Source of the DNA: a virus
Lineage: Duplodnaviria; Caudoviricetes
Reading direction: 5' to 3' (one strand)
IMG/VR virus record: IMGVR_UViG_3300021341_000078
Span: 1-63,627 of that record
DNA: 63,627 nt
Of this stretch, positions 34,557 to 61,214 are shown piece after piece (the stretch's first letter is position 1; each line of letters opens with the position of its first letter). The notes beneath the pieces were generated by a model that saw nothing but the letters and a program-made list of their open reading frames with translations, was not told where the DNA came from and searched no databases. A program made the position numbers and the translations under genes.

Positions 34557-34585
34557 TATAGTCTAGGCTCGTGAAAAATCAAGAG
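34557..34585 (-). promoter_or_regulatory. Late sigma70-type promoter TTGATT-N16-TATAAG; related copy at 21820-21848
   Basis: 24/29 nt identity between the two copies; upstream of portal and baseplate genes. Confidence 0.6.
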
Positions 34586-34673
34586 TAAAATATCAAGAAG
34601 ATAAGGTGTCAAAACTTTTGTACTCAAATTAACACAGCATAATGAGATTATGAAGGCAGTCCTTTTTTATTCG

Positions 34674-34681
34674 TAAATTTG
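34674..34681 (+). promoter_or_regulatory. Bacteroidota -7 promoter element TAAATTTG
   Basis: Matches TAnnTTTG upstream of standard-code moron 34748. Confidence 0.6.
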
Positions 34682-34747
34682 TAATGCTATTTCTCGCCAG
34701 ATTATATGATATCAAAAATTAACGAACCTATCTGTATATAAATAGAT

Positions 34748-35515
34748 ATGAATAAATTTAAGTTTTTTGTTGTAGTCTCGATTTTACTTATTGGTGTTTT
34801 ATATTATAGAATGTCTTTAGGTTCTTCTTATGCATATGAAGAGGAAACTGTGTTTACTGACTTAGAAGAAGCCTCTGAACCAGAAATAAAGTTTGACCCT
34901 CCCCAAATTTTTGCTGAACCTTATGATAAGAAAGATAACTTGAAGGATAAATTACTTAAAAAATGCAATATTTCTAGCCTAAAGAAAAAACTGCGAAAAT
35001 CCTGTGATTATAACGAAACTAGAAACCTTGCTGCAATAATTGCTTCCAAGTCTGAAGGAGAATTCAACATTGGTCAGGTATGTGATATTTGGGATTATTG
35101 TAAAGAGAAATGGGCGTATGTAGATGATCCTGCTACCTCTTTCATTTCCTCCGCATCCAATACAATCAGAATAGGGTTTAAAGGAGATTGTGATGATTTT
35201 GCGGTTGTAAATTCAGCTTTAATACTAGGTATTGGGGGAAGAGTACGGATTAATGTGGCTTATAATGATGATGGAGGTCATGCTTTTACTGAAGTAAATG
35301 TTGGGGATAGTAACATTGATGCCATACAGGCTTACATAAACTATCGATATAAAAAAAGATTAAAACAAAAAGTGAAAATTAACTACAGAGTTTCGTCCGA
35401 TGGAAACAAATGGTTGAATCTTGATTGGTTCTCTGAATATCCTGGTGGAAAGTATTTTAATTTTAATCATGGAACTTCTTATTATATATTGCAAGATTTC
35501 TGTGAAAGTTTTTAA
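34748..35515 (+). CDS. Membrane-anchored transglutaminase-like cysteine protein (standard-code moron)
   Basis: GDCDDFA...GHAFTEV...LDW triad; N-terminal TM. Confidence 0.8.
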   Translation: MNKFKFFVVVSILLIGVLYYRMSLGSSYAYEEETVFTDLEEASEPEIKFDPPQIFAEPYDKKDNLKDKLLKKCNISSLKKKLRKSCDYNETRNLAAIIASKSEGEFNIGQVCDIWDYCKEKWAYVDDPATSFISSASNTIRIGFKGDCDDFAVVNSALILGIGGRVRINVAYNDDGGHAFTEVNVGDSNIDAIQAYINYRYKKRLKQKVKINYRVSSDGNKWLNLDWFSEYPGGKYFNFNHGTSYYILQDFCESF

Positions 35516-35534
35516 CTTTGAGAAAATTGAAGTT

Positions 35535-36209
35535 ATGGTATTCTACACTAGTGATGGAAAAGAAACATTTGGACCATTTTCTTTAGAAGAGTTAAAAGAA
35601 CAAGAACTTGTTAGTACTTCTCTGGTTTATAGTGAAGGAACGCAGTGGGTGAAAGCAATAGACTTACCTGAACTAGCAGATTTCTTTAAGGCCAAGGTCC
35701 CACCACCACCTCACATTCCACCTCCGCCACCTGTTCACCTAGTCAATCAAAATGTTTACCAAAGTAAGATATCTAACGATAAGCCTTTCTCTTTTGATTT
35801 TTCACAAGTGAAGGATAAGGCCTGGATAGTCGCTCTTGTAGTGTTTTTGATAATTGGCGGATTTGGGGTAAACTATTATCAAAATGTCAAAGAGACTGCA
35901 CGTTTAGAGGCGGAGGAAGTAGCAAGTAAAGAATTAAAGAAACAAGAAGAGGCAGCTAAAGCTGAAGAACAACGTATTAAGGAAGTCGAAGGAAAAATCG
36001 CAGAATCTAAGGAAAGGCTTGCGACACTTCAAGGTGATCTAGCCTATGCGCGCCGCAATCAAAGAGAGGTTGAAGAATTCGATATAACCAGAACGCCAAA
36101 GCAAGGTAGGGAGCAGAAGGCCGAAGCGAGAAGGGAAGTTAATAGAATTCAAAAACAGATCGACCAGGAGAAAAAAAGAATAGAAGATCTTGAGGCAATG
36201 CTATACTAA
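35535..36209 (+). CDS. GYF_2/DUF4339-domain membrane protein with coiled coil (standard-code moron)
   Basis: GPFSLEELK...LVYSEG..WVKA...PEL, poly-Pro linker, TM helix. Confidence 0.8.
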   Translation: MVFYTSDGKETFGPFSLEELKEQELVSTSLVYSEGTQWVKAIDLPELADFFKAKVPPPPHIPPPPPVHLVNQNVYQSKISNDKPFSFDFSQVKDKAWIVALVVFLIIGGFGVNYYQNVKETARLEAEEVASKELKKQEEAAKAEEQRIKEVEGKIAESKERLATLQGDLAYARRNQREVEEFDITRTPKQGREQKAEARREVNRIQKQIDQEKKRIEDLEAMLY

Positions 36210-36293
36210 TTGGTCTATTACCGATTGACAGAGATTTGTACGGCCAGATTGACCGAAACAACTATCTTCAAATTTCAGTAAAATTAAATTGAG

Positions 36294-36324
36294 TAGAGCG
36301 TATCTAGAGTTTAGATACGCTCTA
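36294..36324. terminator. Perfect 13-bp hairpin
   Basis: TAGAGCGTATCTA-GAGTT-TAGATACGCTCTA. Confidence 0.55.
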
Positions 36325-36356
36325 TTTAAATAGAGTACGTTCCGTCAGATACTATC

Positions 36357-37610
36357 ATGGGAATAAAGTCATTGATTTACCTTGTAACCGCTCTAGTAAT
36401 TAGTGTCGTAATCTTAGACATTAAAAGCGATATACACAAAAAAAGAACATATGATGAAGACTACAGTAAAGTCCTAAACATCAAGTATGGACTATTAAGC
36501 TTAGATGAGTGGAAAGACAAGGCTTATATCGTACTAAGACAAAACATTAATGAATTCAACTTCAATAATTCAGACAAGCAGACACTAAAGAGCCAGATTG
36601 AAGAACTACTATATACTCTTTTAGATGAAGTTAAGGAGGTAGTTGAGGAAAGTAGTACTTTGAATGGTGCGATTCCTAGCGAGGTGGCGAATTTTCTACG
36701 ATCGTTGGTGATCGATTTTGGAGTCATTGAGAATAATATACCTGATTTTGCCGATTCCATAATGGCAGAACTCAATGATCCTCGTAATCAAAATCAGGTA
36801 AAGAGCATAATCAATACCAAGTTGAGATCTATTCTGGAACTTGATGTGCCAAGGACTGACTTAGAGTTTAGATCATTCTATTTTGAGTTATATAACTGCA
36901 CAAGTTACTTGGAGTGTGGTGAAGAAATCAAAAACAAGTTAAAGCCTATAGAGGAAAGCATTGAATGTAAGAAGAAAATTCTATATGGATGCGCGGCTTT
37001 ATTGATTTTTATTGCCTTGTTCCCACAGAGAAAAGTAGATTTAGGAGATATTGTTCCTTTAACAATGGCAAGTATAGGTCTACTGTATGCAGGGATATAT
37101 TATCCAATGATTTCTGTTGATGCCAGGGTTAGTGAATTTGACTTTAAGTTGCTAGGAATGAATGTAGAATTTGGAGAACAAGTTATATTCTATCAATCGA
37201 AGAGTATTCTTGAAGTCGTAGGTTTGCTAATAAGTGAATCCAATATAGATAGTGTGTTTGTCGGGTTTTTAATCTTATTTTTTAGTGTCCTATTTCCGAT
37301 ATCCAAAATGTTGCTTTCCCTTGTATTTTACTTTAACCGTAAGAGCAGAGTTATATTCTATATAGTTACTAAGCTTAGTAAATGGTCTATGGCTGATGTA
37401 TTTGTGGTTGCCATCTTTATGTCGTTTATAGGCTTACGTAGTTTAGTGAAAAGCCAGGTTCTGAGTATTGAGAGCGGAAACCCATTCATTGACATTGTAG
37501 CAACCGACAACACCTCTTTAGAAATAGGTTTTGTCTGCTTCACCTTCTATTGTTTAATCAGTATTTTGATGTCTGCGAAAATTGGGAAATTACCAAAACA
37601 CTTCAGTTAG
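36357..37610 (+). CDS. Paraquat-inducible protein A (PqiA)-domain membrane protein (standard-code moron)
   Basis: LFFSVLFPISK and KWSMADVFVVAI motifs. Confidence 0.85.
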   Translation: MGIKSLIYLVTALVISVVILDIKSDIHKKRTYDEDYSKVLNIKYGLLSLDEWKDKAYIVLRQNINEFNFNNSDKQTLKSQIEELLYTLLDEVKEVVEESSTLNGAIPSEVANFLRSLVIDFGVIENNIPDFADSIMAELNDPRNQNQVKSIINTKLRSILELDVPRTDLEFRSFYFELYNCTSYLECGEEIKNKLKPIEESIECKKKILYGCAALLIFIALFPQRKVDLGDIVPLTMASIGLLYAGIYYPMISVDARVSEFDFKLLGMNVEFGEQVIFYQSKSILEVVGLLISESNIDSVFVGFLILFFSVLFPISKMLLSLVFYFNRKSRVIFYIVTKLSKWSMADVFVVAIFMSFIGLRSLVKSQVLSIESGNPFIDIVATDNTSLEIGFVCFTFYCLISILMSAKIGKLPKHFS

Positions 37611-37632
37611 ACTAGAAGGTTATCTGCATTAC

Positions 37633-38970
37633 TTAGTTTAATATAATTCATCCAAAGGAGTATACTTTAGGAGTCAACTTCCAGTAGCAACGGAACATAA
37701 TACAATCTGCAAAGTCTGGAGACCTACCGATCTTTTCTATGATGTCTTCCTTCTTTATCATTCTGATCTTAGTGTCCTTATCCATGTCTATCTGACACAT
37801 AACATCTAGCTCTTCTATTATTTCTTCTTTGAATCTGTCGTCGTTTATTCTGATGCTTCTTATGTGATCTCTAAGCTCGAAGTAACACTGTGTTTTTAGG
37901 TTCTGGTAGCTAGGCTTGAACTTGTCTATTTTCTCTTCTCTTGACTGTACTGGGGTAGAGTTGTTCTGGAATCATTTACATCTTAGGTTGTCCCTAACTC
38001 CTGCTCAGATACCGTCTGCATCTACAATTATATTCTTACGGTTCACTTTATGCTTCTGTGAGAACTGTACAATCTTATCCTGTAGCACATCTAGTGTGCA
38101 TGTATCATAAACAACCATATCGATCACTTCTCGTCAGTCTCGCACCATTATCACGGCTCTATCTCTACCCATTCTAGCAACGTCTGCTGTTATATATTTC
38201 TCTCAGTTATTCTTTGGGTTTGTGAACATATCACACAGGTCATCATAGTCGTACAACTTTCAAGGCGTGTCATCGTAATCAAAGTTACCATAGAGCAGTC
38301 TTTGCTTCTGCACCTCTGGTAGCTCCTTTAGGTTCTCTATGTAGTGTTCTGAGATGTATTTATTGTCTGTAGCTAGTGAGGTGACAAACTTTGTATTATC
38401 CGCTTGTTTCTTGTCTCTAAATGGCTTGTAGAACTTTTGGTATACCCGACCCTTGTCTGGGTTAAATGTAGCCAGCACTTTACCTATTATGTCATACTGA
38501 TCTAGTTTGTACCTGCATCTAGAGAGTAAAATATTGAACGCTAGCTCTTTGATCTCGTTACCCTCGTCTACGAATCATCAACACACCTCTATGGATCAGA
38601 ATCTAGAGTACATTGGGTCTGAGGGCATCCAACTAGCGTCTAGCAAGAATATCATAGAACCATTTCGATAGTGTATCTGTGAGTCTTGTTGTTTGTATGT
38701 TACATGTTCTTTGGTAAGACCTGATTTAGGTATTACGTCACCCATAAGTGTCATTAGTGTAGATTGTTTTAGTCTCTTGAGTTCGTTACGTGCGATGAAC
38801 CGTCTGGATCAGGGCTTAGCGATGCACATAGTGTTTATCCATGTACATCATAGGTAGGACTTACCTCATCACGCTGCACCTCAATATCAAATAGAAGTAG
38901 TAACCATGTCGGTTAGATACTCCCAACAGTCTCCCTGCTTCTTAGTTAGTGATATCTCTAGCGTGCTCAT
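37633..38970 (-). CDS. terL: Terminase large subunit; recoded
   Basis: IGYGGAAGGGKS (TGA at four of those Gly), SRW(CGG)FIAR, GFVDEG, ATFNP, ADVARMGRD, GRSPDFAD. Confidence 0.93.
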
Positions 38971-38975
38971 ACTTG

Positions 38976-39003
38976 GTTATAGTCGTGATCTTGTCTTTGT
39001 CAA
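38976..39003 (-). promoter_or_regulatory. sigma70-type promoter TTGACA-N16-TATAAC, 5 nt before the terL ATG
   Basis: Direct motif match; implies a leaderless transcript. Confidence 0.65.
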
Positions 39004-39101
39004 ACAAAAACTTTGTCTTGTTTTCGTCCAGATTAATAGAGTTGATTTGCTTTTAAGGTTATAATTTGGCACACTCAACGTACCAACACAAACCAAAAAC
39101 T

Positions 39102-40136
39102 ATGTTCGTACTAAATCTATTGGCTGGTATCACAGCCGTTTTGGGTGGCTACTACAGGTTTTTGAAGTTCTCTCGAATAAATGATGAGGTTGAAGAATAC
39201 AAGAAAAAGAACGGTAGAATATGGGAAAAAATAGATAACTCGAAATTCAGAGAACTACCAGCCATTGTTATTAGGTGGTATCTACGACTAAGTACGCCTT
39301 TCAAGAATATTTACGCGGAGCTTGAAAAAAGAGGCGTAAGTGGGAAAGTTCCTAAGTTCTTTTACTATGGCTTTATGATAATAGGCACAGCGTGTTTTAG
39401 TCTTTCCTTATTCGCTTTTCAAAACCACCTACTTTACTTTGTTTTCTTGCTTTTGTTCTTGGGTATCCCTGTAGTTTTTCAAAATGATCAGACCTTTAAT
39501 TTATCTGAAGGTCAGGGAATTTACGCTTTTGGTAAGTACATGACTATACTTTTCCTTAGCCTTTTGATAACATCTTCTTCGCTCATCCTTGGGGATGAAG
39601 TAACTTGGAATGATTTTAGTATTGTATCAGACTTAGAAGTAAGGACACTAGTTTTTTCGATACTTTTTAGCAATGTAATATTTGATCTTCTGACCGTATT
39701 CATAACGTACTTCATTCTTAAGAGAGCACTAAACAACCGACGATTCCTTTTCCTCTTTATATCCCTTGACATCATAATGTCAGCGTGTTTCTCTATTTAC
39801 TCCATCTATTTTGGCTTGCTAGGCACAGAGCAGAGTATAGACCTTCTGGAAGCAACACGTATGCTTATAGGTCTTTCTCCAGATGGTAGTATGTGGCAGT
39901 TTGGGTCTTACTTTTGGGCGATGCACACTACCTTCATACCGACACTAATATACTTGAGTGTGTTAATCCTGATGATTATAGCAAAGTACATAACGATACC
40001 TGTAGCTAATTTTTTCTACAGAGCAAGTGTTACTGAAGACCCATACATGATGTACGCCTTTTTCTACGTTACATTGTCTGGTATCTTCCTTTTGATAAGT
40101 TTTGTAATGGGATATTACTTAAAAAGCCCCTCGTAA
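39102..40136 (+). CDS. Multi-TM membrane protein (standard-code moron)
   Basis: Many hydrophobic helices, no TGA, opposite strand to late genes; hairpin 40121-40146 follows. Confidence 0.75.
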   Translation: MFVLNLLAGITAVLGGYYRFLKFSRINDEVEEYKKKNGRIWEKIDNSKFRELPAIVIRWYLRLSTPFKNIYAELEKRGVSGKVPKFFYYGFMIIGTACFSLSLFAFQNHLLYFVFLLLFLGIPVVFQNDQTFNLSEGQGIYAFGKYMTILFLSLLITSSSLILGDEVTWNDFSIVSDLEVRTLVFSILFSNVIFDLLTVFITYFILKRALNNRRFLFLFISLDIIMSACFSIYSIYFGLLGTEQSIDLLEATRMLIGLSPDGSMWQFGSYFWAMHTTFIPTLIYLSVLILMIIAKYITIPVANFFYRASVTEDPYMMYAFFYVTLSGIFLLISFVMGYYLKSPS

Positions 40137-41781
40137 GAAGGGCTTGTATATTCTTAGACTACTTAGCTTTTAGTACTTCAAGTATCTGTATATAGCTACT
40201 AATATTCAAACGACTAAACCATACGGTCACATTGCTACTACAAGCAGATTAAACAGCTTTTGTCATATCGTTTCACTCTCGGTTCAGTATGATGGATCGT
40301 ATTCTGACATCTGAATTATCAGAAATCAGAGAAACCCTATAGCTATCCACATAGTTACTGCCACAAACAGTGGAACTTCTTCTGTTCAACTAGCAGAGAC
40401 ATTAGAAGAATTTGCTGCATTAGTAGCTGCGATAGCAGCGAACATCGATGCTGTTGTTGCACTCATTTGTAATTATTTAGGGTATAAAACTAACTATTAT
40501 TAAGAAGGAGTATTAAGAGTAAGGAAACCACAACAAGCCAACTCATTGCCCCCATCTCGTCGTTAAGTATGAATCATATAATGAAACAGACAATAATATT
40601 TACCAACATCAAAAACATGAGTAAAATATAAAACTACTTAGCACCAGTCTTTGGTAACACCTTTGTCTTGAACTGTTTTACTAGGTGTGCTTCTGTGTAT
40701 TCTGCTCAGTCCTTAGTGTGTGTTGTTATCCCAAAGTTTTTACACACGTCTATGATGTCTTCTTTGCGTAATATATCGGCGCAAACCCTAGGTGGCATCG
40801 TTAGCAAAACGTCTTTGGTGCGTATGTAGCTATCCAGAGCGTCTATATTTATCTTGTTGATGTGTACTGCTCCTAGAGCCATTATGTGTAACTCTTCTAT
40901 TTGTTCTTGTTGCTTGCTTATAATATTACCTTGTGCGTTTTGTGTGATAGCAAGAACTATACAGGCTATAGATAATAGGACTACTGCGATTTGCATGGGA
41001 TATCTTTATGAAGTAAAGTGAAGTTCAATAACTCGCGGTATCAGCTCTCTTCAACCTTAAATGTTATCTCTTTATCTCTACAAAACACTTCCATTTCATG
41101 ACGCCTAAATAGAGAGTGATGCTTATTCAATCTCTCCTCGTCAGAGTACTTTCAAGAAAGATTTATCGATATATACAGATTCTCATAAAGAGGTATAACT
41201 ACATAATCCTTTCCAGAGAGGTTACACAAGTCTATCATAGGCATTAGATAAATTGCGTCGTTGTGCTTCTTTTGTACGTCATCACAACAGTCTTTTCTTT
41301 TTCAAAACATTATAGTATTGCGTATAGAAAGGTAAAAAACATTCATAGAACTAGTATTAGAAGTCCTACGTAGATCGGTGTGTTGCTAGGTGTGGTACGT
41401 AAGAAGTACTTTATCATCTCTGTAGATGGTGGCTTGGCTTTTGGGTCAGGATTGTGCTTAATTGGTGGCACTGGTAGCCTTCGCTTCTGGGACATGTGTG
41501 TGTTACTTGTAAAACTAGTCCTCTATCTTCTCTAAAATACTTGCGTGTATTAGGCGGTGTCACAATGGACCATCTGCTACATCACGTAGAGATACGGTAA
41601 ACACTCATTCTAGTCTAGTAGCGCTATAATCATCAAAGGTAGATGCTTCGTACGCAACATTAGACAGATACTCTTCAAGAGAGATCCTGATTACTGTTCA
41701 TACTATTCACTCATAAAAACCTTCTGTTACTCTCACTTTGTCTCAGTACTTAAACATCTTGCGTAGGGTTACTTGTAAAAA

Positions 41782-42177
41782 CTATCTCTCTATCTTTATG
41801 TTGATGCTGTCAAAAAGTGGGCTTTCATCTTTCCCTGTTATCTCTTGGTGTTGTTTATTCTTCCACGTGTCTTTGTAGTTGTTGCACAAGTTGAAGATTA
41901 CTCCTGCAACATTTTTTCATTGGAAGAGCTGTCATTCCGCATAAGCTTGGCAAATAAAGTCTATCTTTTTTAATGTGTCCGAAAACTTTTCTGGGAGGTC
42001 GTAGAAATATCAGTGACCTAGTAGCATTTCAGCTAAAAAGCCTCTTTTGTAGATAGGTAATCAATTCTCAGATTGCTTCACACAATAAGCAATAAACTTA
42101 TCCCAAAGCTCTTTAGGATTCTTAATCTTGCGTGGTCTTCAGCCTTTGTTCTTCTTAGCTGGTGCTTTCTTTGGCAT
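41782..42177 (-). CDS. Terminase small subunit; recoded
   Basis: NKGGRPRKIKNPKELWDKF...AGVIFNL...EITGKD. Confidence 0.75.
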
Positions 42178-42893
42178 CTTCAAACAGGTCAATAATAAAC
42201 TTCTCTACTCTCTCTTGCAGCTCTATAAGTAAGTATGAAAAGGTTTTCTTAATATTTTCTACATCTTCTTCGCTTAGAATATCTATCTCTTTTTGAGACA
42301 TGTTGTTCAACTCGAAGTACTCCTCTAGCGCTCTAGATTTTACGATATCGTTGCGTTTAATCATCTTTTTTTATAGTAACTAAACTGCTTTCTACTAGGG
42401 AGTATAACTGGTTAGGGGTGAGTCATTCTAGACTCTTTTCTTGTAGATCTACTACTGGTAGTTCTACCTCGTGTTCTTGTAGTTCTTGGAACTCTTTTTT
42501 TAGTGCTTCTTCTTTACCTTTCTTGATTTTCCCTTTAGTGTAGTACTTCTTTACTAGCAGGCTTTTTGCTTCTTCATATGCTTTGAAGTTTTCTTGATAA
42601 GCGTTTCTAAGTTTGATTAGTCACATAGCTTCTTTCACGCCTAGCTTGCAGTCCATGAGCGCTAATAGTGAGTCGTATACAGCTTGAGTAAAGTAGAGGT
42701 TTTTCATTATCCTGTTATAATTAGTGCTAAATCTGCATAGGTAAGGTTGAAGATAACCAGTAGCAAAAAGTAGAGGCAGAAACCAAGAGCTGCATACCTC
42801 AAGTACTTAAGTTCAAAAGTTACTATTGCCATGAACACCATAAAAAGAGAAGCTGGCATTACAATGTAAAGACTCAATTCGTATAACCACATC

Positions 42894-43061
42894 TTATAAG
42901 TTAGTTATTAAAACACGTACTAGGTCTTGCAAGTTTATGTAACAAATGTCGCCGTTGGTGAACTGTATTTGTACAATTTTCTTTGCATGTAACCTGTTGT
43001 AAAACGTCTGTCTACTTACGCTATAGAACTGCGTATACTCTTTTACACTTTGGAACAACAT
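42894..43061 (-). CDS. Small HTH DNA-binding protein at head of the leftward operon
   Basis: SVKEY...VSRQTFYNRL; TTGCAA-N16-TATAGT promoter at ~43092-43119. Confidence 0.5.
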   Translation of the reverse strand: MLFQSVKEYTQFYSVSRQTFYNRLHAKKIVQIQFTNGDICYINLQDLVRVLITNL

Positions 43062-43796
43062 ACAACATCTATGACAAGTAAACTATCGACACTATAGTTA
43101 CAGTTTTGGAAATTGCAAGTGATTCTAACAGGGTCGATTTCGACCTAATTAAAAAAACTCTCCCTACTTAAACTTCAGGAGAGCGAATGTTACACCTAAA
43201 ACCCTAATTCTTTCTAGTTAGTTTTCTTCTTCTTTGTTTGCTTTACTACTTTGCTAGCTTGTAGGCTTTTCTCTTTGGGGTTCTTGTTGTACTTCTTGCG
43301 TTTCATAGGCGGTGCTTTTTTGTTATGAGATGTGATGTCACCTATGTTATTATTCTGTTCAGCAGAATTTCAAGAGATCTTTTTTCCCCATTCATCAGCA
43401 CCTCACTGTCTAAGCATATCTGTATCATTAGGTATTATGTGGACGTTGTTATTATTCTGTTCAGCTTCTATTGCAAGTAGTTCTGCATAGTATTCCTTGA
43501 GTTCATTCTGTTCGTATCAGAGTCGTTTGATGATGGTTTCGAACTTATGTGCTCGGTGTCCTATTCAGGAGTCTCGTGATAGAGTAAGCTGTACTGATTC
43601 TATGATTTCGTATTGGTCGCGGATTGTGCTAACGTCTTTTCGGACTTGTATGGTCGTTGGCTGTGGCATTTCGGCGGCGCGCATATAAAATGTGGGATTT
43701 TACATTTAATGTTGATAGCACAATAGTGGTGTAAACAGTTGATTTTAAGATAGATAAACTATAGTGCTTAGTATAGATTTATTATAGACTGATTAT

Positions 43797-44219
43797 ATGG
43801 AATATTTATACGCTTTGCTGGCGTTTCCACTAGCTTCTTGAGTACTTTATTACTTCTTAGTGTATAGGAAAAAACCTTGGAAGTGCAAGGGTAAATGAGA
43901 TCCCAGAAGCATGACTCCTGAGCAATTCGAGGCGTATACCGCCCACTGGCTTTCTAAGCATTGACGACGTAATGTAAAGGTGACTGCTCACGTAAAGGAC
44001 GGCGGCAAGGATGTGGTAGCATGGAAGAGGAGAAAGAAATATTACATCGAGTGCAAGAGATATACTAACTCTACGGTAGGTGTCGCCATAGTACGTTCTA
44101 TCTACTGAGTAGCACAAGCGGATTGAGTAAAAGCTGGTCTAGCGTATGTATGAAAACTATCAAAGGATGCTCGTAAATTTGCTGACAAAAACAAAGTGTT
44201 ATTGCTGGATTTCAACTAG
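43797..44219 (+). CDS. Mrr-like restriction endonuclease domain with N-terminal TM; recoded
   Basis: MTPEQFE...HGW(CGA)...DGGKDV...IECKRY...VG...VR..YG. Confidence 0.8.
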
Positions 44220-44608
44220 GTTGTTAATGTCAGATTTTCGTTGTATATTAAGATCGCTGACCAAGCGATTTTTATTTTTTCAACAAAATATTAATGATCT
44301 GAATCAGCGCTGAGGTGTTGACCAACATTGTTTTACTAGTTTGAATGTGTATCTGTTTTTCCCTTTATGTTTTACTTTGAAAGGTTGTAAAGAAAAAACG
44401 CTATAAAAGATCTTTTTTAAGAAGATTGAGATTCGTGTTGACCAATCCAAGCTTCATAAAAAAATCTCTAGAGTGATCTTTCATTGACGAACTTTCATGT
44501 ATAGACAAAAAGAAAGAACCATCGCAAAACTAAGTAGTACAAAGGGGCTTAACGCCTCTTTTTTTATTTGTATGTCAACCTCAATATAAACTTTGTGTTT
44601 ATTTTCTC

Positions 44609-44636
44609 TTGCATTTATAAACTTCACGTGTATAAT
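44609..44636 (+). promoter_or_regulatory. sigma70-type early promoter TTGCAT-N16-TATAAT
   Basis: Direct match upstream of Cro-like gene. Confidence 0.65.
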
Positions 44637-44673
44637 GTAATCGTCAATCAAGTTTTACTTTCTTACCTACCAC

Positions 44674-44862
44674 ATGTCATTCCCTTCTTACAAACAGAGA
44701 ACACAGTACGTAGTTATTGCACAAGAGTTGTGAATCTCCGTACAAACAGTTAAGTATTATTTTACTGACAGACTCAAGTGAACAGCTATTAGAAAAAAGA
44801 TTGCAAAGTACTTGAGGAAAGTGCAAATGGAAGAACTCGGTGGCTACCTAACAGATGAATAG
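44674..44862 (+). CDS. Cro-like HTH protein; recoded
   Basis: IAQELG(TGA)ISVQTVKYYF, Gly at the HTH turn. Confidence 0.65.
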
Positions 44863-46944: not shown

Positions 46945-47791
46945 CCATGAGACCCATAGTAGAAAAGATTGTGTACTGTCCATGAACATGAAACGAATAT
47001 GTAGCTTATGTAAGGGGAAATGGGAAGAACTTCAAGTGCCATAAAGATATTGAATATGGACGGTGCATGTGAAATAAAAACGTAAAAAAGAAAATACCGC
47101 TTGAGACCTTATTCAAAATTGATGCTATGACTTCTGTGTGTCCTTGACCTAAAAGTATGCGACATGAACAACTGATTGGAGTGTATTCAATTTTTGATCC
47201 AGATGAGAAGCGGTAAAACTGTGTGACGAGAAGAGCTATATTTTATGCTTTATACTAAATTTACTATGACTACTATTTTTGTATGTGTTGTGTACTCAGT
47301 GTTCTGAGGAGCACTAACAATTGACCCTACCTATTCTACAAGATGGTTTTATGATCACGAGATGTGAACTATCCCAGTAGAGGAATGTGTGGAGATAACA
47401 ATTTCGGAATACATTGGCGCACAACTTTGACCTATTTGGGAACAGATAGATGAGGAGCTTATCAAGCAAGGTACAGATCCAGACTCTATAACACTTGAGT
47501 AGATTGTTTTAGTTTTTAAAGAAAATAATGATTGTCAACTACAGAGCAAACTACTACGAGCTAAAACCAGTGAAAGTAGAGTCTGAGTTTGAGGCTCATA
47601 TAGTCCTAGAGGAAGAAAACCAAAGCTACCTGTTGTGGTCGTTCATTAAAATACTTTTATTTATAGTATTACTACTTATTGTGCTTGTTGCTTTCCTAGT
47701 GAAAGAGTTAGTGTTTTAGTGATATGGGGGAGTAGTGATCTTGGAACTAAAACTTTTTGTTGGAGATATTGACTTTATAAAATATATGTTT

Positions 47792-47799
47792 TATATTTG
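47792..47799 (+). promoter_or_regulatory. Bacteroidota -7 element TATATTTG; further copies at 48302-48309 (+) and 61206-61213 (-)
   Basis: TAnnTTTG consensus upstream of standard-code genes. Confidence 0.6.
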
Positions 47800-48259: not shown

Positions 48260-48357
48260 AACTAATTGTTGCAGACGGTTGACAATACACAATAAAAGTT
48301 TTATATTTGTTGTGTTGTCCTCTTGATTCCATGAACTGATGCAAAACTATAACGCTA

Positions 48358-48702
48358 ATGCACATTAGTCGTAACTTAGTTCGTCGAATTAGATCTGTTG
48401 ACATTTATGAAGTAACCGAAAAAGAGCTTAGTCAGCTTGAAAGAGGAACACCTCAAATAATCAATACCATAAGTCCAGTATTAGGATGTCTTGCCTTTGG
48501 GACTTCCTTTCTTCGAGATCTACTCTATCAAGAACTTTCCAGACCAACATTTATTGTTTTTACTCTTCTTGCTAGTACATCATTCGCAATAGGGTTCTTT
48601 CTAATTCTACAAAGCGTAGCTACTAGGAGGGAAAAAAGAGAACTATTCGCAAAAATTAGGGAACAGAACAAAGTCAACAATACTATTGCAACTGATAAAT
48701 AA
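48358..48702 (+). CDS. Two-TM membrane protein, paralog B (standard-code moron)
   Basis: SVDIYEVTEKELSQLERG...SPVLGC...TSFLRD. Confidence 0.75.
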   Translation: MHISRNLVRRIRSVDIYEVTEKELSQLERGTPQIINTISPVLGCLAFGTSFLRDLLYQELSRPTFIVFTLLASTSFAIGFFLILQSVATRREKRELFAKIREQNKVNNTIATDK

Positions 48703-48869
48703 TCAGTTATAGTAGTCGCGTTAAACAACTTGCCAGTTGTAACAGTGGGTATACAGTGGGAGTCCATTATTTGGGTTCAAGGGTTGCTCGCAAGAGTAAG
48801 GAGCTGTTACAGAAAACCTCATAGGCTTGGCAAGTTGTCCTATGGGGTTTTTATTTTATCTAATAAAAC

Positions 48870-49574: not shown

Positions 49575-49576
49575 AA

Positions 49577-51891: not shown

Positions 51892-52026
51892 ATTTTAGAA
51901 CTACTCGGTAGTAACTGGTAGCGTAGGTACTACGCGAACCGAGCTTAAGCTCAACGCCTGTGGAGAGTGTAGGTTACGAACTCTATGAAGCAGGAAGCCG
52001 TCGGACTTTAGTCCTTGGTAGTTCAC
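51892..52026 (+). ncRNA. Putative TnpB omega/reRNA scaffold and IS right end
   Basis: ACGCCTGTGGAGAG...ACTCTATGAAGCAGGAAGCC, hairpin GGACTTTAGTCC, terminal GTTCAC. Confidence 0.65.
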
Positions 52027-52993
52027 ATCTTAAACAGAGTTACTAATGACGTTACAAGAAATATTAGACTTGTGGGTAGAGAAGGGGGCTGTGTATGAGT
52101 GAGTTTCTTTTGATCAAGCGCATTTGTTCTGAAAGCACATACTTCTATATGAAGACGTTGGACCTTTTAACGAAGAATACATCTCACTCTCTCTAAACGA
52201 TATACTCTACTGAGATTCCAACTTTTGGAAAGCGTTGTTTCCCCTTGACTGGCAGTATGAAACGCCAGAATATGATAGTAGGTACGTAGACCCTGTGTTT
52301 AGGGATTGAGGAGTGATTTATGTTCTAGATAACGTAAGTGACGCACCGAGAGTGCGAAGATGGAACTTTCTAAAAATGCAAAGCACTCTCCACAAAGATA
52401 AAGTCGCTTACCTATCTGATTTACTTTCTAAATAATAACGATGCCTAAAGGAAAAATAGATGGAACAAGGTTTTCTAATTATGCAATAACAGAGAAAGAG
52501 GTAAGCTTGCTATACAAGGAGTGGGTGAAAAGACTTTCTAAAGAACTAGATAAGCGCAATGAGTTCTGATTAACATTCACAGAAACACCTCCTACGGTAA
52601 AAAAGATTATAGACGGTGTTAAAAAAATTGAAGATGATTTACTTTCTAACAATACAGATGACTAAGAAACGAATACACCCTAATTGACGAACAGCACACT
52701 ATAGCACAGGAATTAGCTATACAGATTGAGTCTATATAATAAGAGACAGAGAAGGAAGATACTGGTGATGCTTTTATGAGGAACAGATAATAATAGACTT
52801 CTGATTTGAGCAAGAAGATGATAAGTATGATAAATGTGCTTACGAACTTATAGCAAACCAAGTGGTTAGAATGTTTGACAAACCCTCAATAGAACAAATC
52901 CTCAGAAAATACTTCCCAGAAAATTCTTAGCTTATTCTTTGCAAAATCTAACAACATACACACGATACAGGTGTTTATCACCTACCAAACACA

Positions 52994-53491
52994 ATGGAAG
53001 AGTTAATATCCCACGTAGATGAGAAAGATGAGCTTATAGATTACAGACCTAGATCAGAGTTTTACAAGAGTGAGATGATACACAGGACGGTATGAGTCTT
53101 GCTGTTCAACTCACTGTGACAGATGCTTATCCAGAAAAGATCTGAGAACAAAAAAGAGTCTCCTTGATTACGGTCCTGCTCAGTATCGTGAGGCGTTGGA
53201 ATAGAAGATTATGAGACCGCTGCAAAGAGAGAGACGAAAGAAGAGCTGGGTATAGACGTAGAAGTAAGAAAGTTGTTCAAGTACAAAAGAAACAGGAAAT
53301 ACTCTAACCCTTACTTCAAAGAAGTTTACGAAGCTACACACGACTGACCACTAACAATCCAAGAAGAAGAGATAGCTGAAATACTACGAGCAGACGTTGA
53401 ACGGATAGAGAAAGATATACAAGAGAACCCACACAAGTATACAGAGTGATTCAAAAAGCTTTTACAGATTTACTTACAAGATGGACGTTAA
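52994..53491 (+). CDS. NUDIX hydrolase (IDI-like); recoded
   Basis: IHRTV..LLFNSLGQMLIQKRS...PG(TGA)LW(CGG)S...AAKRETKEELGI. Confidence 0.85.
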
Positions 53492-53870
53492 AAAGATTAA
53501 TGAAGAAATAAAGAAGTTATGATCAACAGATAATATTTCTGACTGACACCACACATTCAAGGAGCTATACGAACATAGACACGCACTGCTTATATCCTTA
53601 ATCAACAACACTAATCGAGACTGGATAAAAAGCTACATACACTACGACTATGAGATGTGGAAATGATGGTTTATAGTTCAGGGAATGTGTCCTACACAGA
53701 ATGACCAGTTCAACCAAATATCCTACCATTTACCAAACATGTATCGAGACAAAGTACGCTGTAAGGAAATAGCGAAAGCAGAGCGACGAGATTGACACAC
53801 AGCAGAGGATGTTGTATTCAGACTTATGCAACACAACACTAAGCCCCTTGGAGTTTTAGGCAACTTTTAG
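53481..53870 (+). CDS. WDGH-motif phage protein; recoded
   Basis: SDGHHTFKELYEHR...QISYHLP...W(CGA)DG(TGA)HT. Confidence 0.8.
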
Positions 53871-53883
53871 ATCTCTACCTACA

Positions 53884-54246
53884 ATGATCAGAATAGTTCT
53901 ACAGTGAAGACCACTATCCACTCAACACATCTACTGACAACGCGGTAGGATTAGATATATGAAGAAAGAAGCAAAACTCCTGAAAGCATCATATATCGAA
54001 CAAGCGAGGTCACAATACGCATGAAAGTGTCTCGAAACACCGCTTTCCGTAGAGATCAAAATCTATTTCTGAGACAGAAGGAAGCGTGACTGGGATAATT
54101 ATCACAAGCTGACGATGGATGCCTTAGAATGAATTTTATACAAGGACGATAGCCAAATTCAGATTGCACTCGTTACGAAAGCGTACGACAAGGAAAACCC
54201 ATGCACTGTTTTAGACTTTATAGAGCTATGTGACATAGGAAAATAA
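53884..54246 (+). CDS. rusA: RusA-like Holliday junction resolvase; recoded
   Basis: RKRDWDNYHKLTMDALEGILYKDDSQI. Confidence 0.85.
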
Positions 54247-54972: not shown

Positions 54973-55712
54973 GTGACGAGAGAGGTCGCTAAACAAGCGG
55001 GCATTGAACCAAAAGTTAGACCCTAAAAGCAAAAAAGACTAGCGTGGAATATATCTGTGTGTATAATGATAACATATGAGTTGGTCTATAACAGATGGTG
55101 TGGGAAACAGGGCTGATTGACCCCTGAAAAAGTAAACATCCTAGATCAGTGTTTACGTCTACAATATAATCGTCACTATGGCAACAATAAGCAGACCCAC
55201 ATCATCTCCTATAGATCAGCTCAACCCTTTATCCTTTACGTGTGTTGTTATGCCTCTACCCAAACAAGCTAAAAAGGCTCTCAGTGAGTTGAGAGCGAAG
55301 ATTGCAGGAGCAAGTTATTGTAATGCTGGATGGATTCAGAGAGAGAGATGGAGAATGAGAAGAACAACCCCAAGAACCAAAGATGTACATGTAGAGCTAC
55401 AAGAGGTGAATACAAGCCTCTACCAGAACCTATCTACAAACGACTACCTTTATTCCCTTATAGAGCACTAAGATGACTGACAGAAATCAGCTAATCGGTG
55501 AAGCGTATGAGAAGATAACAAAGGACTTGTGAACTATGATAGACTTCCTAGGTGATGGGATCTACCAGATAGTACTAGATATACTTGAATGAAAGAAAAC
55601 TATCGAGCTATTAGACCTGCTTGGAAAGTAATTACGTGAGCTAGACACCTCCTTAAACTGTCCTTAGCCTAGGCACGCTTTACACTGCCCTTTTATACTT
55701 ACCATTACTACA

Positions 55713-56240: not shown

Positions 56241-57150
56241 TCACTAGGGGCTTCGTGCCCCTTTTATTTTTGAAATATACTTATGTATAAGTTGATAATC
56301 GACTCTCTAAAAAAGATGGAAAAGGATGTAATCAAAGACACAACAATCAGCATCTTAGACGAGTACTTGTACCAATACAACCTTTTGATAAACGAAAAGA
56401 TAGATCTTATTAAAGAATACTCCTTAAATAAATGAGACTATGAGGACAAAGTGAGAAAAAAAGTGAGCCAACTGCTAAGTGATAGGATCGTAAAGCACAA
56501 GACAAAAGCGGAAACCATAGCAGAAGAGGAGCATAAAGAACTATGAGAAAAAATAAGAAGAGACAGTATAGTCATAGAAGAGATAGACACATTTTCTAGG
56601 AAGACATTAAATAACTACCATCATGGGAAGTCTAAATTAAAGAGTGACTTCGATATGGATAAGCAGGTAAACAATATAGCTAGATTTCAAGAATGACACT
56701 AATTGCTTTACATCTTACGTATTATACAATGTGAATTATTATTGCACTATGAATCGTTGCGTTGATCTTTTTATCGTTTAAGCTCTCGTGTAGCAGTTGC
56801 AATACACAAGCGATCAACCCACAACAACCAAAGATTACTCCAGCAAAGACCACTGTTTTCACTAAGTGATGAAGTAACCTAAAAGCACCTAAGAAAAGAA
56901 AGACCCCTAAGACTGACAAGCTGAATGAGAACAGAGCACAAATCGAATTACAGATACTAGCAGGTTGGACCAATGAAGATATCGCAAAGTACTACTGAGT
57001 AGGTAGTTCGACTGTTCAGAGATGGAAAGTTGCTAGAGGGATAAAGAGACTATCTAAAAGACAAATAGAGAAGGGGAAAGAGATGCTAGGGGAGAGATAT
57101 GATGTAAAGAAGTTCCGTAAACAAGCTAAAGAAGCAGGATTAATGCAGAC

Positions 57151-57178
57151 TTGACAAATGTAATTCCAGAGTTATAAT
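57151..57178 (+). promoter_or_regulatory. Consensus sigma70 promoter TTGACA-N16-TATAAT
   Basis: Perfect -35 and -10 hexamers. Confidence 0.75.
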
Positions 57179-58397: not shown

Positions 58398-59006
58398 TGT
58401 GACAGCTAGTTTTTTGATCTAAAGAGGCAATAGAAAAGCTAATCGAGAGCTTAAAGAAAACAAGTCTCTCCTTAAGTAGACACTACTGTACTTGTGACCA
58501 CTGTGATTTAAATGGTCTTATAGAACAAGCCTCTTGCTCCTCGTGCGACACTATACTTTACGGTTCTCGGTGAAGTCCAGAACATAGAGAGGCAGAAATC
58601 GTACTAAAAGAGATAATGGAAGAGTCAGATAAGGTGCGTGAAAAGTGATGAGCATTGCTTTGTAAAAAATGTGATTCACAGATAACTCGTTTAGATTGGT
58701 CAGAAAAGGAAAGTCTTCTAAGATCCTACATAGGCGATATAGAGGAAAACAAAATTACTCTTTTTTTAGATACTAACAACAAGTAATGAAGAAGTTTCTA
58801 CTAATACGATTGCCAATCCTTTTGTGATCGTTTCTTGGAGTAATGCTTGCTTTAAAGTTTGAGCCAGTTAGACGGTCTACCTGAGAGAAGATTTGATGGA
58901 GTGTGTATGAAAGAGAAAGTGGAAAATTTGTGTGACATGCTATATATAAGTGACCTCATAAGGGTTTTCACTGACCAAAGGAAGATTTAGATAGTAATAA
59001 TAAGTA

Positions 59007-59360
59007 ATGATAGACCCACAGAAAACGATAGACCGAAACCTTGCTTTTGGAAATAAACAACAGTTTGATACAGGGAAGTATGATTGATACCTAGATTACA
59101 GCATGATGAGAGAGGAGATACGTGAGTTCTTGCTAGCCTCAGATAGTGACGATAAGGTAGAAATGGTAGATGCCTGTATAGATGTGATATTTGTAGCTCT
59201 ATGAACGCTACATAAGCTATGATTAGATGCAGAGTCGATCACTAGAGCGTATGATGAGGTGTGTAGGTCAAACGATAGCAAGATCGGAGCTAAGAAGAGA
59301 GATGGGAAAGTAACTAAGGGAGAAAACTACTCACCACCTAACCTAAATTTTGTTCTTTAA
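59007..59360 (+). CDS. MazG-like NTP pyrophosphohydrolase; recoded
   Basis: EEIRE...VEMVDACIDVIFVALG...EVCRSNDSK...DGKVTKGENY. Confidence 0.85.
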
Positions 59361-60901
59361 ATATACAAGATGTCTAGATTCAAACTTAACACACCTAGAG
59401 AAGTACACGAGAACCCAAACAGCAAGTTCCAAGCTGGTCTAAATAAGCTCAGAGAGCTTTGAGCAGAAGAATTATTACAAACCTTCACTGAGATGCGTGA
59501 GAACCAGAGAGACGCTTGAACACGAACTGAGACAGCTGATACTGCTGCTGGTCTGATCTACGATAAAATAGAGGAGGAAAAGAGCAAGAGAAAGTAGTGG
59601 CTGTTTCCATTTTGGAACATACCACAGCAACCCTTTTACCTTAGTATTACAGATGGAATTACTTACTTGATACGTATTAGCAAATTGCTTCATTTTTTCT
59701 CCACTTATTGGCTACGATAGCCCTTACTCTGAGTGGCGTTATTGTCCTGAGTTTGATGCTCCTTGCGTAGAGGAAACATTCTATAGGTTTAGAGACTGAG
59801 TATATGACTGTAGAACAGACGGTGAACGACTAGCGCATTGTGCCGATTCAGAATAACCTTATTTATTTAGTATATGGGGATGAAGAAAGTATACAGATGA
59901 TGTGAAATAGAGATAACAAGAGAATATGACGAAATCTACCACTCTATCTTTTCGAAAGACTGACGAGAGCTTGCTAGTTGATTCGGTCGGTGAGATACCA
60001 TACGGTCTGTTCGATGACCATGTCAACTTAGAGTTGATTCATTCTTAGATGAATGCTGATGAGACTTTGAAAAATATGAGGAGATGCGATACGGAAAACC
60101 ATTTTAGTTTGCAGAACAATCATTGTCTAAAGTAGATTTATCCTACCCTCACACATGGAAAAGCTCCCAACCCCACAACCTAAAAAGAGACTATTCAAGA
60201 AGCAAGAGTATCAACAGAGGCTTGCCGAAGTATTGAAGTGAAGCTGTCGGCAATGCGGTAGACTATCTAACAACCTAACAGGAGGACTATGTCCTGACTG
60301 CTTATAATACTAACCACAAACAATGTCCTATAAAAGAAAGACAGTAAACGTAACACACTTCTTTTGGTTCAACTGAAAGATACATAGAGTAGAGGACGCT
60401 TATAACTTATGACATAAAAGACAAAAGCCTATAATCACATGGCTAGAAGAGTATAACAAGGCAACACAAGAGTACTCAGGCATAGGAGATAAAAGAAAGC
60501 GCGAAAAGATTAGAAAACTAGAAAGTAAAATACGGTGATACCTGGGAAACTAGTTTTACTTTACATATAGAAATGAAACCAGACTTTACACGAGACGAAG
60601 CAATTACAGGAATGAGGAATCGGTTTATAGTATGAGTAGCAGTAGGTATACTTATATCTACGCTGGCTAGTTTTATTGTTTAATGTATAGACATGAGTAC
60701 CGTATGAGAAGAAATACTTGTAGAACTAGAAAGATGTAAAATGTTACTTTCTATGTATCAAGAAATATGAGTAGAAGGAGTTTTTTGAGCAACACTTATA
60801 TCAGAGTGAATTAATAAAGCAGAAAAGGCGATTAGTGAATGAAATATAGTAGAAATAATCAAGTCGTATGAGGAACTAAAGTCCTTTGAGTAGATAAAAA
60901 G

Positions 60902-60931
60902 AAAGCCCCCTAGGAAACTAGGAGGCTCTTT
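60902..60931. terminator. Bidirectional terminator at the recoded/standard-code boundary
   Basis: A-run, AGCCCCCTAG-GAAA-CTAGGAGGCT, T-run between convergent blocks. Confidence 0.6.
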
Positions 60932-61158
60932 TTTAGTTCAGATTCGAGACGTTCTTGGAACAGCTCTGTCAGGTTCTCTGAGGCTTGCGCTTCACTGTAG
61001 GGAATCCTGACAATCAAGCAATCATCCTCATAGATAACCTTATCTACTTCATCTATACATTCTAGTATAACGAATAGATCTTGTTCAAACTGAGCTTCTA
61101 AGAACTCTACGTCAATCAGATCAAAGAGATCTTCTTGTACTGCTCTCGTAATTGTCAT
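60910..61158 (-). CDS. Acidic hypothetical protein (standard code)
   Basis: 82-aa ORF preceded by TATATTTG. Confidence 0.6.
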   Translation of the reverse strand: MTITRAVQEDLFDLIDVEFLEAQFEQDLFVILECIDEVDKVIYEDDCLIVRIPYSEAQASENLTELFQERLESELKKSLLVS

Positions 61159-61214
61159 TTGTGTTGTGATTTAGTTAGCATGTGCGCCACACTCTCCTCA
61201 CCTTACAAATATAC

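Follow-up and report, generated by a model that had tools for sequence, protein, structure and literature searches.

The stretch of DNA analysed here (the window, 63,627 nucleotides (nt) at its full length) is the viral record IMGVR_UViG_3300021341_000078 (Duplodnaviria; Caudoviricetes), an IMG/VR provirus taken from a longer contig (103,730 nt). By the CheckV estimate it is 57% complete, so the record is possibly incomplete. Translation with table 11 leaves the interval between ~9.4 and 61.2 kb broken up, but this interval is filled with phage genes once TGA is taken as a sense codon. By family, the recoded genes are those for lysis, tail, tape measure, head, portal, large terminase, a DnaB-like helicase, a methyltransferase, RusA, HNH nucleases and TnpB, and they carry 384 TGA per 13,722 codons (2.8% of codons). 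Also encoded are 14 genes of at least 100 amino acids (aa) without any TGA (per-gene probability 0.04 to 5e-9), whose stops are all TAA or TAG. These include the integrase, with no TGA in 418 codons, whereas the lytic genes are recoded. The two classes of gene also differ in the signals that precede them, both in the -10 box of the promoter and in the leader before the start codon, and the signals of the recoded class recur in related elements.

The left-end module (4762-9455) has no TGA in 1555 codons. Its last gene (8565-9455, plus strand) converges with the recoded holin-peptidase gene (9436-10500, minus strand) and overlaps it by 20 nt, which leaves no space for an attachment site; thus the TGA-free left module is part of the same element, the border of which is probably near tRNA-Ala. 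Codon usage of the pooled end modules correlates with that of the recoded genes at r = 0.96, compared with 0.82 for the internal islands and 0.71 for the far-left genes. With such a correlation and no TGA, the end modules are best seen as phage genes held TGA-free by selection. The element was recovered from four seawater metagenome runs, and contigs of these runs span the junctions between TGA-free and recoded DNA; the mosaic is therefore not an assembly artefact. Only 2 positions in 20 kb differ among the four runs, too little variation for a conservation test. Coordinates of the main features are given in Table 1.

Judging from alignments, TGA is glycine in the recoded genes. When the large terminase was aligned with six standard-code homologues, glycine was the majority residue at 10 of the 14 alignable TGA columns (mostly 6/6) and tryptophan at none. 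TGA falls at glycine-type motif positions of the C5 methyltransferase, and the Walker A motifs of terminase and helicase are consistent with the same meaning. It is established knowledge, repeated in the available parts of PMC10746230 and PMC9297842, that among bacteria TGA encodes glycine only in Gracilibacteria and Absconditabacteria (genetic code 25). No tRNA with anticodon UCA was found in the window even at relaxed thresholds, there is no sigma factor or RNA polymerase among its annotated proteins, and no code-changing protein family (release factor, synthetase) was matched in this possibly incomplete record. Some virion genes are poor in TGA: the genes for major capsid, major tail and fibre or decoration proteins (30643-31821, 27397-28275 and 15061-16479) have 1 TGA each versus 21-49 GGN codons, and capsid and scaffold genes of four recoded relatives described below (L175, L177, L139, L140) have 0-1. 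TGA seems to be avoided clade-wide in the most highly expressed virion genes.

An earlier note, made from the sequence alone, had pointed to nine promoter sites, and all are present. Five match TTG-N19-TATA (34557-34582, 38978-39003 and 43093-43118 on the minus strand, 44609-44634 and 57151-57176 on the plus strand) and four match TAnnTTTG (34674, 47792 and 48302 on the plus strand, 61206 on the minus strand). We identified three further sites, at 21820-21845 (minus strand), 48686 and 61755 (both plus strand). Counts over the full window show no enrichment of TAnnTTTG (57 vs 60.8 ± 7.9 in shuffles) and a mild one of TTGnnn-N16-TATA (22 vs 15.1 ± 3.65, a count of 22 being reached by 2/100 shuffles), and a generic sigma-70 scan of 34000-53999 showed no enrichment (52 sites vs 59.7 ± 6.9). 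In context, the motifs were counted in 39 co-oriented upstream regions with a total of 6,717 nt, after three of an initial 42 had been left out as pseudo-regions longer than 500 nt; each region was shuffled 2000 times with dinucleotides kept. Once position and orientation are counted in this way, enrichment over the shuffled background is evident: TTGnnn-N16/17-TATA occurs 14 times vs 1.93 ± 1.38 expected overall, 10 vs 1.47 before recoded units and 4 vs 0.41 before TGA-free units. Thus, the proposal that TTGnnn-N16-TATAnn marks recoded operons stands as an enrichment and not as an exclusive mark, since the core is also enriched before TGA-free units. We take these sites to be real promoter-like elements.

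The recurring 16-nt spacer, singled out in the same note, is a real preference. There are 8 TTG-TATA pairs at N16 and 6 at N17; other spacers have 1-3 sites each (N13-15, 18, 19 and 21) or 6 (N20), and the spacer is 16 nt at all 7 recoded-unit sites. In an alignment of the 21820 and 34557 pair, CTCTTGATTTTTC and GACTATA are kept while the flanks have diverged, and a context of GACTATA and CTCTTG recurs at the recoded-unit promoters. The TATATA box at 21820 reads TATAGT if the spacer is 18 nt. Beyond TGA-free islands on the opposite strand, the promoters at 34582 and 39003 start the portal and terminase genes anew. The 48686 candidate is doubtful, given that a terminator (48812-48858) lies downstream of it. 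Two TGA-free cassettes, 47769-48858 and 60890-61235, each have their own promoter, open reading frame(s) (ORFs) and intrinsic terminator (in the second, a hairpin of -20.8 kcal/mol and then a U-run); such a promoter and terminator pair was not shown for 34674-37610.

The box TAnnTTTG is distributed differently. It occurs 4 times before TGA-free genes vs 0.89 expected (P = 0.011), as the earlier note had it for standard-code genes, although in half of the TGA-free upstream regions (4/8) there is none; before recoded units there is 1 vs 3.0 expected. Per nucleotide, this is 4/1313 before TGA-free vs 1/5229 before recoded units (Fisher p = 0.007, or 0.027 with the paralogous pair counted as one). 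The minus-strand box at 61206, which had been assigned to a standard-code gene, lies downstream of gene 61215-61748 and heads the 82-aa TGA-free ORF at 60910-61158. A TTG is found 19-20 nt upstream of the box in 3/4 sites and is absent at 34674. Scored as TTG-N19/20-TAnnTTTG, the combination occurs 3 times vs 0.03 expected before TGA-free units and 0 vs 0.10 before recoded units. Where the -10 box is of TATA type, the TTTG extension is present at 3/3 TGA-free and 0/7 recoded sites (p = 0.008; 0.028 with the pair as one). The feature that separates the classes is therefore the TTTG extension of the -10 box and not the TTG/TATA core. In the two paralogous promoters, TTGAC and a 12-nt block (GTTTTATATTTG) are kept, the latter at 12/12 positions, while spacer, leader and proteins (43% identity) have diverged.

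A second signal separates the classes at the start of translation. Unbiased k-mer and expectation-maximisation analyses both found a TTTA core ~20 nt before the start codon. TTTA starting at -24 to -17 precedes 48/64 recoded genes, 2/13 long TGA-free genes and 5/7 short TGA-free genes, and 73/1469 control ATGs (recoded vs long TGA-free, Fisher p = 9e-5); the short TGA-free ORFs sit inside recoded operons and could be TGA-free by chance (probability 0.06-0.21 each). We considered TTTA as a promoter element and set this aside, as its distance to the ATG is fixed (peak at -21 to -19) even where genes overlap. A run of AAAA in the -16 to -1 interval shows the opposite distribution, with 9/64 recoded genes, 8/13 long TGA-free genes and 41/65 genes of Flavobacterium phage 11b. 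For Flavobacterium, leaders rich in A and a TAAAA motif have been reported in the available part of PMC2483708. The TTTA box is not above background in phage 11b (14/65 vs 90/641), and our search of the literature on Gracilibacteria and Shine-Dalgarno sequences found nothing on start-site motifs.

Several other repeats and hairpins lie in the leaders. The 8-mer TAGTTTTA occurs 11 times, 10 of them intergenic (10524, 12529, 31849, 40492, 40636 and 41517 on the minus strand; 44860, 57599, 60551 and 60668 on the plus strand). In most cases inspected, its TAG ends the upstream gene and its TTTTA supplies the TTTA box of the gene that follows, 20-28 nt upstream of the ATG, an arrangement that suggests tight stop-to-start coupling. 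Terminator-like hairpins at 48812-48858 and 56246-56270 in the rightward early/replication region have U-runs that double as the TTTA box of the next gene, which hints at read-through or antitermination control. The 9-mer CCACGCTAG has 6 exact copies, all intergenic (20498-20506, 20517-20525, 27377-27385, 34522-34530 and 55039-55047 on the minus strand, 33143-33151 on the plus strand), and 14 sites with one mismatch vs 6.3 expected. It forms the loop of a hairpin in at least 3 late-gene leaders, with stems that differ in sequence (e.g., an 11-bp stem at 34512-34541), and may be an RNA element or a protein-binding site of the late operon.

The closest named relative of the window's large terminase is that of phage 11b (40%). 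In 3,226 nt of upstream sequence, phage 11b has 14 TAnnTTTG boxes, 9 of which are the octamer TATATTTG, the commonest box. This density is like that of the TGA-free units (p = 0.61) and 22x that of the recoded units (p = 1e-5).

Closer terminase homologues (P0128-P0131, 47-56% identical) have W where glycine is conserved, and are thus TGA-recoded kin that a pipeline translated with TGA as W; further TGA-recoded loci were found with an alignment-based scan. Two of these loci, L175 (on a 145-kb contig) and L177 (106 kb), are prophages that adjoin housekeeping genes with in-frame TGA, including genes for a LepA-like GTPase, an ABC-F ATPase with the motif LSG[TGA]E, a MacB-type transporter, dCMP deaminase and PriA. 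The TTTA box precedes 15/24 ORFs in L175, 16/24 in L177, 15/23 in L139, 13/20 in L140 and 6/15 in L174, compared with 4-8% of control ATGs, the share being 5-7% in L175 and L177, and it is also found before the host genes flanking L175 and L177. In 43 upstream regions of the five recoded loci, host genes included, TTGnnn-N16/17-TATA occurs 15 times vs 2.1 ± 1.5 expected; TAnnTTTG is not enriched there (8 vs 6.1). The integrases of these relatives are XerC/D-like with 7-8 TGA each. The comparison with code-25 bacteria that the earlier note called for thus supports it, with the same TTGnnn-N16/17-TATA in the prophages and the host genes of two in-frame-TGA chromosomes. As far as motifs and spacing go, the signals of the recoded genes are identical to those of code-25 chromosomes.

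Table 1. Genes, promoter-like sites and terminators of the window, in order of position.
Feature	Position	Strand	Basis or remark
Far-left genes, TGA-free	1-3642		
Flavin amine oxidase gene, flanking, TGA-free, probably host DNA	2314..3642	+	Pfam Amino_oxidase, 442 aa
tRNA-Ala(GGC), sole tRNA of the window, apparent left border of the element	4537..4611	-	ARAGORN, Rfam
Left-end module, TGA-free: 674-aa unknown protein, HerA/VirD4-like ATPase, Replic_Relax protein	4762..9455		Pfam, PADLOC
Recoded late genes, portal to lysis	9436..34499	-	PHROGs annotation, TGA counts per gene, TTTA boxes
CTCTTGATT-N16-TATATA, promoter-like, before tail gene 20703-21791	21820..21848	-	29-nt repeat copy of 34557-34585
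TTGATT-N16-TATAAG, promoter-like, before portal gene	34555..34582	-	
TAAATTTG box, 74 nt before TGA-free gene 34748; no TTG at -33/-35	34674..34681	+	
TGA-free island: transglutaminase-like, GYF_2-domain and PqiA-like proteins	34748..37610	+	P(0 TGA) <1e-3 per gene
TTGACA-N16-TATAAC, promoter-like, 5 nt before ATG of large terminase gene 37633-38970	38976..39003	-	
TGA-free gene, 344 aa, unknown function, between terminase genes, no TAnnTTTG upstream	39102..40136	+	
TTGCAA-N16-TATAGT, promoter-like, heads leftward operon of small genes and small-terminase-like gene	43091..43118	-	
TTGCAT-N16-TATAAT, promoter-like, heads rightward early operon, just after terminator 44541-44570	44609..44636	+	
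TTGACT-N17-TATATTTG, hybrid promoter, before TGA-free two-transmembrane gene 47903-48259	47769..47799	+	Repeat
Pair of paralogous TGA-free two-transmembrane genes	47903-48259 and 48358-48702	+	43% protein identity
TTGACA-N17-TATATTTG, hybrid promoter, before paralogous TGA-free gene 48358-48702	48279..48309	+	
TTGCAA-N16-TATAGT, candidate	48686..48713	+	Doubtful
Intrinsic terminator closing the two-gene TGA-free cassette	48812..48858	+	Hairpin -18.7 kcal/mol, then UUUUUAUUUU (U-run)
TTGACA-N16-TATAAT, promoter-like, before recoded gene 57209; best sigma-70 score of the window	57151..57178	+	
Cassette: TTGAAT-N16-TATATTTG (61206-61235), acidic TGA-free 82-aa ORF (60910-61158), terminator (60895-60935)	60890..61235	-	
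Right-end module, TGA-free: 177-aa protein, RadC, tyrosine integrase with Arm-DNA-bind_5	61215..63627		
TTGAAT-N16-TATGAT, candidate before TGA-free RadC, overlaps 21-nt palindrome	61755..61782	+	

Some further features were identified near the promoters. The TATAAC 5 nt before the terminase ATG (38976-38970) has a counterpart 4 nt before the ATG of 48358 (48343-48358), and transcripts from either site would be leaderless or nearly so. A 21-nt palindrome, TACGAATA-N5-TATTCGTA, at 61771-61791 lies between the divergent genes for the 177-aa protein and RadC, over the candidate RadC -10 box, and looks like an operator. A pattern scan with the late-promoter block returned 6 matches, all within coding DNA of standard-code contigs, which we attribute to chance. 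Single-protein scans for close relatives (large terminase, capsid protein, integrase, TnpB) returned none closer than 42%.

Among the other genes, the TGA-free 585-aa ATPase at 6792-8549 matches models of VirD4/TraG-type coupling proteins and the defence model mad8 (PADLOC, E = 1.3e-13), and could act in DNA transfer or anti-phage defence; the PADLOC and NCBIfam scans gave nothing beyond these mad8/HerA-like and VirD4-like matches, both for this gene. The TGA-free proteins of 39102-40136 and 36357-37610 had no match among the phage collection. The TnpB gene (IS605 OrfB-type, 50848-51891) lies within the replication operon and has 8 in-frame TGA; no close copy was found in the species genomes (best 38%). 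It is followed by a sub-threshold match to RAGATH-18 (51957-51996; 31.3 bits vs a gathering score of 44.9). Two stretches that adjoin the amine oxidase gene (484-2313, 1.8 kb, and 3643-4536, 0.9 kb) have no ORF of at least 100 aa under any code tried, which is unusual for bacterial or phage DNA.

The cell that carries the provirus is suggested by the flanking gene. The amine oxidase is 60-73% identical to many proteins; 18 of the 120 listed are named by organism, and these are 16 Bacteroidota, 1 Pseudomonadales and 1 Chloroherpetonaceae. The Bacteroidota matches are to Aureispira, Aquimarina, Lacinutrix, Sediminicola, Tenacibaculum, Lewinella, Lentimicrobiaceae and unnamed Bacteroidota. Among 14 control genomes, the Arm-DNA-bind_5 domain of the integrase was found only in Bacteroides thetaiotaomicron, and the nearest Atlas clusters of the integrase are mostly Bacteroidota, which serves as a lead only. 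The tRNA-Ala is uninformative, as its best matches (85-87% identical) are from unrelated taxa, and its orientation is not the usual one for a tRNA-targeting integrase. Thus, the only host-like gene of the window is TGA-free and Bacteroidota-like, and linkage to a code-25 host is seen for L175 and L177. A Bacteroidota lysogen is plausible and is the assignment that we favour.

On balance, we favour the view that this one prophage combines two host-type grammars, with expression signals that differ at two layers and follow TGA usage. The recoded structural, packaging and replication operons would carry the signals of code-25 bacteria (TTGnnn-N16-TATAnn, TTTA at about -20, dense TGA). The TGA-free set consists of the genes at the integrase end, those of the left-end module and several cassettes that are self-contained, with a promoter and terminator of their own; these genes appear to lack the TTTA box, have A-run leaders like those of phage 11b and, in three or four cases, a putative Bacteroidota -7 box (TATATTTG or TAAATTTG). 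The primary sigma factor of Bacteroidota recognizes TAnnTTTG at -7 and TTTG/TTG at -33, according to the available parts of PMC7366714, PMC9723704 and PMC2483708, and promoters of other Gram-negative bacteria are described as performing poorly in Bacteroidetes (in the accessible text of PMC2483708 and PMC7366714). If the host is a Bacteroidota cell, its primary sigma factor would be expected to initiate transcription at no promoters other than those of the TAnnTTTG cassettes, and its ribosomes to finish only TGA-free frames. The lytic programme would then be blocked at transcription and at decoding, and possibly at translation initiation too, so that the silence of lytic genes in a lysogen, which the earlier note expected, is plausible for a Bacteroidota host. 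A code-25 cell whose polymerase is of sigma-70 type could express every gene.

A number of observations weigh against this account. Three of the four TAnnTTTG sites (47792, 48302, 61206) are hybrids that fit sigma-70 and Bacteroidota geometry alike. As 47792 and 48302 precede paralogues (43% identity), they represent one event, so that only three sites are independent. The TTG/TATA core is enriched before both classes, TGA-free genes at 36357, 39102, 61215 and 61874 (4/8) have no TAnnTTTG upstream, and the RadC candidate (TTGAAT-N16-TATGAT) has no TTTG and is a counter-example to the rule. With the relaxed pattern TTGnnn-N-TAnnnT there is no spacer preference, and the last T of the -10 hexamer is present in 4/7 recoded-unit sites, TATAAG, TATAAC and TATATA being without it. 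Three recoded starts (30643-31821, 49577, 54544) and one TGA-free start (39102) were re-set after the motif was known; without the three recoded ones, the TTTA box is found at 45/61. The box is weak in L174 (6/15) and in a more distant recoded group (2/13, 1/7, 2/9, 2/11, 4/16 and 3/5), and the gene maps of L175, L140 and L174 are near-identical, so the five loci are not five independent samples. The Bacteroidota assignment comes from one flanking gene of 442 aa. Finally, the window has no TGA-reading tRNA, sigma factor or polymerase, and there is thus no visible route to lytic growth in a Bacteroidota cell.

Lytic growth may be explained in several ways, given that the divergent early promoters at 43118 and 44609 have no Bacteroidota box. 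The possibilities considered are a code-25 lytic host, a helper or unseen phage function, and a lysogen that itself uses code 25. In the first case, the phage would straddle two codes: it would integrate and express its TGA-free genes in marine Bacteroidota and run its lytic programme only in a code-25 CPR (Candidate Phyla Radiation) bacterium. We put this forward tentatively, as a reading that is more likely wrong than right. If it is true, the code-25 bacterium might be an epibiont of the Bacteroidota host; alternatively, polymerase specificity and tRNA might come from a helper. In this reading, the split of the promoters would be no timing device but one lock in a matched set of three (promoter, start signal and codon meaning).

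A lysogen that uses code 25 would require only one host and one grammar. A sigma-70-type polymerase would read all sites, TATATTTG would be a TATATT variant of the -10 box found in a few cassettes, and TGA would be avoided in some genes for another reason. The enrichment of TTGnnn-N16/17-TATA before TGA-free units (4 vs 0.41) and the TTGAC kept in the paralogous promoters agree with this, as do the relatives, which are prophages of code-25 chromosomes, and the lack of tRNA(UCA) or a sigma factor in the window. Highly expressed capsid and tail genes have 0-1 TGA here and in the relatives, so TGA avoidance need not imply a second host. A single grammar does not account for the TTTG extension, which is kept 12/12 in paralogues that are 43% identical and which occurs in 3/3 TGA-free vs 0/7 recoded TATA-type sites (p = 0.008; 0.028 with the pair as one). 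Neither does it account for the TTTA box, present before host genes of the code-25 relatives and missing from TGA-free genes, nor for the AAAA leaders that TGA-free genes share with phage 11b. The integrases of the relatives have 7-8 TGA versus none in 418 codons here, and the flanking gene is Bacteroidota-like and TGA-free. We regard a single code-25 host as possible though rather doubtful.

A switch made by the phage itself in a standard-code Bacteroidota host, of the kind proposed for TAG- and TGA-recoded prophages of the gut, is unlikely in our view. A suppressor tRNA and a polymerase-redirecting factor, outside the record or unrecognisable, would separate early/lysogenic from late/lytic expression in time. 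There is room for such factors in a record that is 57% complete (CheckV) and cut from a 103,730-nt contig, and many small early proteins have no known family. In the available part of Borges et al. (10.1101/2021.08.26.457843), the integrases of recoded prophages are free of in-frame stops and suppressor tRNAs occur in only 35-40% of recoded phages. The lysis, tail, head, packaging and replication modules and the integrase are, however, already complete in the window, and the early promoters 43118 and 44609 have no TAnnTTTG, so that a phage factor able to read them would be lacking at the moment of induction. Moreover, among phages with a code unlike that of their host, that part of the preprint gives only glutamine for TAG and tryptophan for TGA (10.1101/2021.08.26.457843), and the recoded grammar is that of code-25 chromosomes. 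A history of mosaic acquisition is very improbable. In that reading, phages or hosts of the Bacteroidota would have been the source of the cassettes, native promoters and leaders included, and the segregation would mean nothing for regulation. It would fit the presence of cassettes, equipped with a promoter and a terminator, between the packaging genes and within the early operon, and the lower codon-usage correlation of the internal islands (0.82 vs 0.96 for the end modules). The end modules, however, are compositionally native yet wholly TGA-free, although GGA to TGA needs one G-to-T change and neutral drift in a code-25 host should therefore have brought in TGA. The paralogous cassette, too, has no TGA despite its age (43% identity), and its promoter blocks are conserved.

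The segregation of signals reported here provides a candidate consensus for uncultured code-25 bacteria, with a TTGnnn-N16-TATAnn promoter and a TTTA translation-start box at about -20. It also offers a handle on whether phages cross between CPR bacteria and those that use the standard code, which CRISPR spacer matches have brought up as a question (PMC10746230, in the accessible portion). A phage with TGA as glycine beside Bacteroidota DNA would exceed what is observed in the available text of the Borges et al. preprint (10.1101/2021.08.26.457843). Already known are recoded prophages with a standard-code integrase (same preprint, same portion) and the existence of code-25 and TGA-avoiding phages (PMC10746230, in the part available). 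Our literature searches found no published account of promoter and start-site signals that are split along the lines of the code, and the word 'promoter' occurs 0 times in the text of Borges et al. (10.1101/2021.08.26.457843).

The promoters of the recoded units resemble canonical sigma-70 promoters in that TTGACA-like and TATAAT-like hexamers head transcription units, two with a perfect TATAAT. The usual spacer optimum of sigma-70 promoters is 17 nt. The recoded-unit sites differ in the 16-nt spacer at all 7 sites, the lack of the final T in 3/7, and the recurring GACTATA/CTCTTG context. The putative promoters of the TGA-free units resemble Bacteroidota primary-sigma promoters in that TATATTTG precedes three TGA-free ORFs with a TTG 19-20 nt upstream. 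Unlike Bacteroidota promoters, the upstream element is a full TTGAC(A/T), a -35 element of sigma-70 type that is conserved between the paralogues. In phage 11b a TTG is found at 18-21 nt in only 1/14 boxes, unlike the hybrids here. The TGA-free cassettes 47769-48858 and 60890-61235 are self-contained and lie inside or beside phage operons, as do phage morons, which are accessory genes with their own promoter and terminator. Unlike morons, they are also set apart from the genes around them by codon set (no TGA) and leader signal.

Dense in-frame TGA read as glycine in phage genes is shared with the code-25 prophages of Gracilibacteria and Absconditabacteria (Liu et al. 2023, PMC10746230, in its available portion). 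Those prophages are described there as exclusively code-25 compatible, with separate phages that avoid TGA throughout (PMC10746230). The element described here differs from them, as far as that portion of the paper goes, in having both kinds of gene, each with its own promoter and leader signals, and a TGA-free integrase of Bacteroidota type. In its recoded lytic genes and an integrase free of the recoded codon, it resembles Garnet and Topaz (Borges et al., 10.1101/2021.08.26.457843, in the available text), for which the code has been proposed as a lysis-lysogeny partition. It differs in that TGA is read as glycine, with no suppressor tRNA in the window, whereas that text gives TAG to glutamine in Garnet and Topaz and TGA to tryptophan elsewhere (10.1101/2021.08.26.457843). 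Recoded phages are thought to separate lysogeny from lysis by codon meaning; here, promoter box, leader motif and TGA use co-vary.

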